A stretch of 43,830 nucleotides of DNA from a virus (Duplodnaviria; Heunggongvirae; Uroviricota; Caudoviricetes). Shown one piece after another: positions 33,001 through 36,000 of the stretch. Position numbers: made by a program. Numbering within the stretch: position 1 is the stretch's first letter; every line of letters begins with the position of its first letter. The stretch lies in the IMG/VR virus record IMGVR_UViG_2839610755_000005; one strand, written 5' to 3'.

Positions 33001-36000
33001 CCAGCCGCTGGCAGAGGATAAAACATTACTGCCATTTTTCAGCGATGAGCGGGTTATTCGTGCAGCAGGTGGTGCAGGTGCACTGTCTGACTGGTTATTA
33101 CGTCACGTGAAATCCTGCCAGTGGCCACACGGCGATTATCATCACAGCGAAACAGTCATTCACCGTTATGGTACCGGCGCGATGGTGTTGTGCTGGCACT
33201 GCGACAACCAGCTGCGCGACCAGACATCAGAATCACTCGATCAACTTGCTCAGCAGAATCTGGTTGCCTGGATGATTGATGTCATCCGTCACGCAATAAG
33301 CGGTACGCAGGAGAGGGAGTTATCGCTGGCCGAATTATCCTGGTAGGCGGCCTGCAATCAGGTGGTGGATGCACTACCTGAGGCAGTAGCGCGTCGTTCG
33401 CTGGGATTACCAGCGGAAAAAATCCGCTCCGTATACCGTGAGAGTGACATCGTACCGGGAGAACAGACAGCCATCAGCATACTGAAGCAGCGCACAAAAA
33501 ATATTGCGCTGCCACTTCACGTCCACCAGCAACAAAATCCACCACAGAAAAAAACGGTTGTCAGTATCGCCGTTGATCCGGAGTCTCCTGAATCGTTCAT
33601 GAAACGACCTAAACGTCGCCGCTGGGTAAATGAGAAATACACACGCTGGGTAAAGACACAGCCGTGTGCGTGTTGTGGTAAGCCAGCCGACGATCCCCAT
33701 CACCTGATTGGTCATGGTCAGGGCGGAATGGGGACAAAATCTCACGATATTTTCACGCTACCGCTGTGTCGGGAGCATCACAACGAGCTTCATGCGGATC
33801 CGCTGGCGTTCGAAGAAAAGCATGGTTCTCAGGTTGATTTAATTTTTCGTTTTCTTGATCACGCCTTTGCAACTGGCGTGCTTGGGTAAAAGAGGTGACT
33901 GATGCTCATAGATTTGGTTTTACCTTACCCGCCGACGGTGAACACTTACTGGCGACGCCGTGGCAGCACATATTTTGTATCAAAAGCCGGGGAGCGTTAT
34001 CGCCGGGCAGTGGCGCTTATTGTTCGCCAGCAGCGACTGAAATTAAGCCTGTCCGGACGGCTGGCAATAAAAATTATTGCAGAGCCACCGGATAAGCGCC
34101 GCCGTGACCTGGACAATATTCTGAAAGCACCGCTGGATGCGCTGACGCACGCGGGGTTGTTAATGGACGATGAGCAGTTTGATGAAATCAATATTGTACG
34201 TGGAAAGCCAGTATCTGGTGGACGTCTGGGGGTGAAGATTTACCCCATAATGCTTGAAGGGCAGGTCAAAAAATGAAACTGGAAGATTTACCGAAATACT
34301 ACTCCCCAAAATCCCCTGGCCTGACCGATGCATCGGCCTCAACGTCAAAAGATGCGCTGAGTATCACTGATGTGATGGCCGCGCAGGGCATGACACAGAA
34401 TCGGGCTGAGATGGGGTTTTCTGCGTTCCTTGGGAAAATGGGCATTAGTATGAATGACAGAGAGCGGGCAACAGAATTGCTGACAGAATATGCACTCAGT
34501 CGGTGTGATCGCGTGGCGGCGTTAAGAAAACTCCCGGCAGAAATAAAACCGGCAGTGATGCGTATTATGGCTTCGTATGCGTTTGAAGATTATGCCCGTA
34601 GCGCGGCGAGCAAAAAACAGTGCCCCTGCTGTCACGGAAAAAAATTTATTGAAAGCGAGGTTTTTACAAACAAGATCCAGTATCCGGATGGTAAGCCGCC
34701 AGTGTGGGCAAAGTGCACAAAAGGCGTGTATCCGTCTTACTGGGAGGAATGGAAAAAAGTCAGGGAGGTGGTAAAAGTTGCCTGTCCGGAGTGTGGCGGA
34801 AAGGGTGAGGTTTCCACCGCCTGTAAGGATTGCCGTGGGCGTGGTGTCGCCATTCATCGTGAAGAGTCGGTAAAACGTGGTATGCCTGTTATCAGAGACT
34901 GCCAGCGTTGTGGTGGTCGTGGCTGTGAAAGACTACCATCAACGGAGGCATTTAATGCCATATGTAATGTAACCGATGCCATATCTCTTGATACATGGAA
35001 AAAAACAGTTAAACGTTTTTACGATACGCTGGTGGTGCAGTTTGATATTGAAGAAGCATGGGCAGAACAACAACTGAAAAAGGTGACCAGATAGCTTTGT
35101 TGATTTTTCCCGAATCTGTGGTAAATTTGCCCTAACGATGGGCGTTTTATGCCTGACGTTAGAAGATTTTTTACACCCCGCCGCCTGGCGGGTTTTTTAT
35201 GACTGAAATCGCGTCAGTACAGTAAACGCGCTGGTGGCGGTGAATACCGGTCTTTCAGCTTGCTGGCTTTTTTGACAAGAGTTATTGGTGTGTCACGTTA
35301 ACCGAAAAAGGGAAAAAGACATGCTGAAACAGCAGGATATGACAGAAACCGCCAGAGCAGTGTTTAATGAATTAAGCGTCACCGAACCGGCGACAGTCGG
35401 GGAGATTGCGCAGAATACTTACCTTTCACGCGAACGCTGCCAGTTAATACTGACCCAGCTTGTTATGGCGGGTCTGGCAGACTATCAGTTCGGTTGTTAC
35501 AGACGCCTTCAGTCCTGAAGGCTTTTTTATTTGTGGTAAATGGGCGGCTGGTGGGTGTTAGGGGCACTCACCAGCCATCTGCTCATGCGTCTGGATCACA
35601 AGCAAACCTCAGGCCCACTGCTTTGCGCAAAAGCAGAATGAGCCTATCAGAGACAGGCTTAATGATCCATGTTTAACACTGTAAAAATATCCAGTTGTGA
35701 GTTGATCAACGCTGACTGCCTGGAATTTATCCGGTCGTTACCCGAAAATTCTGTTGACCTGATAGTCACGGACCCGCCGTACTTTAAAGTGAAGCCTGAG
35801 GGCTGGGATAACCAGTGGAAGGGCGACGATGATTACCTGAAGTGGCTGGACCAGTGTCTGGCGCAGTTCTGGCGGGTGCTGAAACCTGCCGGAAGTCTTT
35901 ACCTGTTCTGTGGCCATCGCCTGGCATCTGACATTGAAATCATGATGCGTGAACGCTTCAGTGTGCTGAACCATATTATCTGGGCGAAGCCGTCCGGACG

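Follow-up and report, generated by a model that had tools for sequence, protein, structure and literature searches.

When an otherwise intact reading frame carries a single in-frame amber codon, it may be a dead gene, two adjoining genes or a gene whose stop is read through, and this is the question raised by a DUF968/YdfU-type gene in a 43,830-nucleotide stretch of tailed-phage DNA (IMG/VR record IMGVR_UViG_2839610755_000005; hereafter the window). An earlier note, made from the sequence alone, had described two open reading frames (ORFs) that share one frame of 349 codons and are parted only by TAG, and had proposed that this gene and a second amber-interrupted gene in the window could be null alleles or dependent on read-through. 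Our translation agrees with the description: positions 32840–33889 on the + strand form one frame of 349 sense positions, with TAG 33344–33346 at codon 169 as the sole internal stop before the terminal TAA, and the same-frame ORFs on that strand span 32840–33346 (168 aa) and 33362–33889 (175 aa). We propose that a recent point mutation in a sub-lineage of Escherichia coli O157:H7 very probably made a null allele (a pseudogene) of this lambdoid-prophage ydfU-type HNH gene. The coordinates of the features discussed are collected in Table 1.

Ancestral codon and distribution of the amber allele

The window matches the chromosomes of E. coli O157:H7 strains, among them FRIK2455, F1273, and TX 376-2, with 100% identity across the gene and its surroundings (1301 bases) and 99.9% identity over bases 1–25000. 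Searching a set of 5426 complete E. coli genomes, we found 100% identity over the 1050-nt gene in 23 genomes, and the next group of matches stood at 99.9%. A 61-base probe centered on the stop likewise gave a perfect match in exactly 23 genomes; 1091 others had at least one mismatch (closest match 98.4%). Since the identical 61-mer occurs in 23 complete genomes that were assembled independently in several laboratories, the stop is real and not a sequencing artefact, although the amber allele is rare.

For comparison, we fetched six relatives from the 99.5–99.9% identity range, five of them from the 99.8–99.9% band (L003–L007). All six are annotated with an intact gene of 349 aa (WP_001302870.1 in five; WP_001366907.1 in MBT-5). 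Four differ from the window only in having G instead of A at 33345, so that the codon reads TGG (Trp) instead of TAG, and TGG is likewise found in the two that are more divergent. Because all six read TGG and four of them differ at 33345 alone, the lesion is one G>A transition, at 33345, that changed Trp169 to amber, and TGG is the ancestral codon at 33344–33346. The WP_001302870.1 allele, which is carried by O157:H7 and related enterohemorrhagic E. coli (EHEC; for example 611, CV261, M1300706002, and 2013C-4465), has the same 1050 bases except at 33345 and the same flanking genes as the window, but its codon 169 is TGG. Among close cluster representatives, 117 of 120 also have Trp at position 169; of 30 distant full-length ones, 26 have Trp there and the other four Phe or Tyr, which ranks the residue among the approximately 30 positions with at least 85% conservation in that distant set. 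One substitution thus turned a sense codon conserved across the family, and still carried by near-identical orthologues, into the stop. The pseudogene is already flagged in RefSeq: the NCBI Prokaryotic Genome Annotation Pipeline gives this gene, in the identical genomes, the product name 'DUF968 domain-containing protein' and the tags pseudo and 'internal stop'.

Typing data for eleven of the 23 come from PMC10758439 (7409, BB24-1, F1273, F8092B, Show KS 470-1, SS TX 313-1, SS TX 754-1, TB21-1, TX 265-1, TX 376-2, and YB14-1). There, the tir 255 A allele is listed for 11 of 11, Manning clade 7 for all six whose strain rows were consulted, and stx2c at sbcB for all 10 of the eleven whose stx typing was consulted. 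FRIK944 is likewise described as tir A; the TGG strain 611 has the tir T allele. Four of the 15 tir-A strains in PMC10758439 are not among the amber carriers. Most simply, the mutation occurred once, within the bovine-biased tir-A lineage, and was then inherited vertically. All typed carriers belong to one lineage, and the amber allele is very probably a recent, lineage-specific null allele.

Table 1. Coordinates of features in the window (position 1 is its first base)
Feature	Position	Strand	Remarks
DUF968/YdfU-type frame (PHROG 96 'HNH endonuclease'), now a pseudogene	32840..33889	+	349 codons plus TAA
Amber TAG at codon 169, arisen from TGG (Trp) through G>A at 33345	33344..33346	+	relatives have TGG
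Pre-stop coding part, 168-aa N-terminal fragment without HNH	32840..33343	+	strong Shine-Dalgarno (SD) sequence before GTG 32840
Post-stop remainder, 175 codons from an internal GTG, without a dedicated ribosome-binding site	33362..33889	+	SD duplex free energy -5.7
Predicted C-terminal His-Me finger (HNH) zinc-finger nuclease domain, residues ~250-349, sequence intact	33587..33886	+	
rusA	33902-34276	+	directly downstream of DUF968, same transcription unit
Antiterminator Q	34273-35094	+	directly downstream of rusA, same transcription unit
int' remnant, N-terminally truncated, TAG at 10999-11001	10195..11121	-	independent, older pseudogene
ompW fragment	~20547-20672		junction between prophages ('PPompW' type named in phage records LC5678xx)
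Tail gene J split by IS3-family element	~1386-2599		
nleA	8210-9535		
ISEc8/IS66	12199-14532		
nleG	15840-16487		
espM1	16671-17261		

One frame, its product and its protein family

The DUF968 frame is one gene, not two. A word-indexed search found 1457 homologues, and the best 120 of these, from which the length and Trp169 figures were taken, are mostly 348–352 aa long. An exhaustive search of representatives recovered full-length proteins of 320–370 aa that align end to end down to ~27% identity. In the viable phage mEp460_ev081, rusA and Q come after a single coding sequence of 1050 nt; the viable phage PhiR42_1 also has one coding sequence for this gene. PHROG 96 ('HNH endonuclease') covers residues 1–348 of the intact allele (E 8e-174), and in the repaired protein the Pfam DUF968 match runs from residue 160, which places the stop inside the Pfam domain. 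No homologue with this split was found among the homologue searches and these two phages; single full-length genes of 320–370 aa prevail, so the suggestion that the two halves are naturally separate genes fails. The genomic context is that of a DUF968 gene, which is expected as an uninterrupted frame of ~350 codons flanked by the hok/rem region and rusA-Q, but here the frame is interrupted at codon 169; the gene is therefore a pseudogene member of the DUF968/YdfU family.

Inspection of the translation signals showed that the start codon GTG 32840, which abuts the TAA of a preceding ORF of 92 codons, follows a strong SD sequence (GGAGG, 32831–32835; anti-SD duplex -10.6 kcal/mol). An in-frame GTG at 33362 or 33365 sits 16–19 nt past the stop and is also present in intact alleles. 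The anti-SD duplex upstream of this internal GTG is -5.7 kcal/mol, and values of -5 or lower are reached by 25% of positions in the 30–36 kb region. A promoter and terminator scan of 32.0–34.4 kb gave counts at the level of shuffled sequence, with no evidence of an internal promoter for the downstream ORF. The 168-aa N-terminal fragment is the only product expected in quantity.

Scoring against Pfam DUF968 (PF06147; gathering cut-off 27.8) gave 249.8 bits (E 1.9e-74) for the repaired protein and 234.4 bits for the downstream ORF; a match to HNHc_6 fell below the Pfam threshold. The HNH-like Cys/His cluster that the earlier note had seen in the C-terminal part was found there and consists of C276, C279, H287, H288, C310, H314, and H318. 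When the intact allele was modelled with AlphaFold2 from a 36-sequence alignment (mean predicted local distance difference test score 85.6), the N-terminal region (~1–220) consisted of beta-rich elements and helices, including helix 163–172 bearing Trp169, and was followed by a disordered linker (226–242) and a compact C-terminal domain (~250–349); the amber cuts helix 163–172, not the linker. The beta-beta-alpha-metal fold, the zinc-binding Cys/His cluster, and the conserved catalytic His that characterize a His-Me finger were all identified. This domain layout agrees with the classification of DUF968, together with DUF1364, in His-Me finger group 7, for which a role in phage recombination has been hypothesized (Jablonska et al., 2017; PMC5714182). 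The YdfU-type protein is a putative HNH-type nuclease acting on DNA, with predicted metal-dependent activity, and we found no experimental characterization of YdfU, including of its activity, in the literature. In the amber allele, the HNH domain lies downstream of the stop.

The 349 codons and the two-domain architecture are shared with YdfU of the E. coli K-12 Qin prophage (DUF968, PHROG 96). YdfU-type loci have rusA and Q downstream, as here; the upstream gene is hokD in the window and rem in PhiR42_1 and mEp460_ev081. The window copy differs from YdfU in its premature amber at codon 169, and its DNA is 80–90% identical to most E. coli copies. HNH relatives were recovered by fold comparison only: a PDB sequence/profile search with the 36-sequence alignment gave no match at E ≤ 1, YbcO included, and neither Ref of phage P1 (PDB 3plw, a RecA-dependent HNH nuclease) nor YbcO of DLP12 (PDB 3g27, DUF1364) has detectable sequence similarity to YdfU, which differs from both in an extra N-terminal region of ~220 residues without a structural match. 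That region has no Pfam match and no convincing PDB fold match, and is a well-conserved phage domain to which Pfam and PDB folds assign no function. Within it (residues 1–220, window 32840–33499), C93 and C118-W119 are invariant and Q94 and D122 nearly so.

Gram-positive DUF968 proteins described as fusions of Lambda Orf (NinB) with HNH (Curtis et al., 2014; PMC4118853) share the Pfam family name, the nin-like position, and the idea of a DNA-binding N-domain joined to an HNH C-domain. An Orf-like N-domain of the kind proposed for them is unsupported here, because the N-terminal region lacks both a Pfam match and a convincing PDB fold match. We also considered an internal duplication, as a C..HH..C..H/D.N-like pattern is present in both halves, and rejected it (BLASTP of the N-half versus the C-half, E = 2.8).

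Three database proteins (P0147, P0191, and P0194) consist of the first 150–270 YdfU residues joined to tail-tip (GpJ), collar, or tail-fiber domains identified with Pfam. We rejected them as evidence of a modular N-half gene in view of these fusions; the simplest view is that they are chimeras from decayed prophages, presumably formed by large deletions that joined the nin region to tail genes. Proteins of the P0042 type (607 aa) consist of YdfU fused to antiterminator Q.

Weighing the null allele against its alternatives

In the scenario we favor, G>A at 33345 (TGG, Trp169, to TAG) would have inactivated one ydfU-type copy inside an O157:H7 sub-lineage, and the mutation would then have been passed on vertically. 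Ribosomes that start at 32840 would stop after 168 residues and release a product without the nuclease domain, which is probably non-functional. The loss would be tolerated if the gene serves an accessory recombination or nuclease function, as seems likely, and other homologous copies on the same chromosome could compensate: each carrier chromosome has 7 DUF968-homologous places, this one included, so redundancy is plausible. Some points weigh against an inactivated gene. Over its 1050 nt the gene does not vary among the 23 carriers, so that there is no secondary decay past the stop that would prove lost constraint; this lack of further mutation is consistent with a recent event and does not show it. 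In addition, wild-type E. coli reads through UAG at a basal level above zero.

The stop could in principle mark a functional split gene, in which the N-terminal fragment and an HNH fragment re-initiated at GTG 33362 or 33365 act separately or together. Terminating ribosomes could re-initiate at a GTG so close to the stop, databases hold short DUF968-only proteins such as P0135 (204 aa), and YbcO, the minimal HNH relative, exists as a protein in its own right (PMC5714182). We nevertheless consider this very unlikely: the pairing at the internal GTG is far weaker than at the true start and no better than at a quarter of positions, the break falls in a helix at a conserved Trp and off the domain linker, full-length genes are the rule in the homologue searches, and the same GTG in intact alleles indicates that nothing is adapted to it. 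An error of sequencing or assembly is suggested by nothing beyond the single-base difference from the nearest relatives, and its probability is negligible, given that 23 complete assemblies, made independently in different laboratories and countries, all show the same stop and that its distribution is phylogenetically coherent, every typed carrier being tir A and clade 7.

Amber read-through, whether by a suppressor tRNA, programmed or leaky, would still yield full-length protein, and it draws on the wholly intact downstream frame and on the second TAG-interrupted ORF in the window, the int' remnant. That second amber exists, as the earlier note had it; the link between the two ambers does not hold. 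The int' gene is truncated, and its remnant is common to ~444 complete genomes at 99% identity or more (100% in most of those sampled), including EDL933 and non-O157 EHEC, so by its distribution the int' amber, in an old fixed pseudogene, is far older than and unrelated to the DUF968 amber. Two TAGs among the many pseudogenes of the region are within chance and need no common explanation. An intact int homologue at 89% identity is present in strain M18 (L009).

The stop in the DUF968 gene is not conserved among homologues: it is a derived TAG confined to 23 of 5426 genomes, at a position that keeps Trp in most members of both homologue sets. ARAGORN found no tRNA gene in the window. In FRIK2455, the one carrier in which host suppressors were checked, the check covered glnV and glnX, and the glnX-glnV cluster consists of wild-type tRNA-Gln genes, two with CTG and two with TTG; with the CTG anticodons of glnV/glnX retained there, the supE hypothesis was rejected. 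As a positive control, a query with a supE44-type glnV gave 155 records, of which the 60 listed were all K-12 laboratory strains. Production of full-length protein by read-through is accordingly even less probable than a working split gene, and of the two fates suggested for the DUF968 gene in the earlier note, null allele or dependence on read-through, the former stands.

Prophage surroundings and meaning of the lesion

The first ~20.5 kb of the window are the decayed, effector-rich end of a prophage with many frameshifted or stopped pseudogenes and several insertion sequence (IS) elements. In addition to the features listed in Table 1, bases 1–20700 contain IS630, IS256, and IS3 remnants and a frameshifted DUF1076 gene. 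After the ompW fragment, a second lambdoid prophage starts with int at 20718, and the DUF968 gene lies in its nin-like region in the order hokD, two small ORFs, DUF968, rusA, and antiterminator Q. Further along, a stand-alone HNH endonuclease gene (41812–42177, +) just upstream of the terminase small and large subunits (42466 onward) forms with them the HNH-terminase arrangement typical of packaging genes and has no relation to the HNH of DUF968. Elsewhere on the FRIK2455 chromosome, ybeQ and djlC are annotated as pseudogenes with internal stops (L010, 20028–21005 and 24671–26122), so that a lone nonsense lesion is a common occurrence in this lineage.

The amber allele might be non-neutral, either through Rho-dependent polarity on rusA and Q or through loss of a YdfU nuclease that alters prophage recombination or induction. 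We regard this as very unlikely; its whole basis is the gene order DUF968 - rusA - Q together with the restriction to one lineage. In the case of polarity, uncoupled translation over the last 543 nt of the DUF968 gene could lay the transcript open to Rho and lower the expression of rusA and Q, which would help to lock the ompW-adjacent prophage in the bovine-biased tir-255-A lineage. As a null allele, the lesion carries little biological weight and is an ordinary case of an accessory gene decaying in a pathogen genome rich in prophages. The single-nucleotide change to A at 33345 cleanly marks a sub-clade of O157:H7 within tir-255-A, clade 7, and strains with and without the amber form a natural, isogenic-like pair in which a phenotype of the YdfU/DUF968 HNH protein may be sought.
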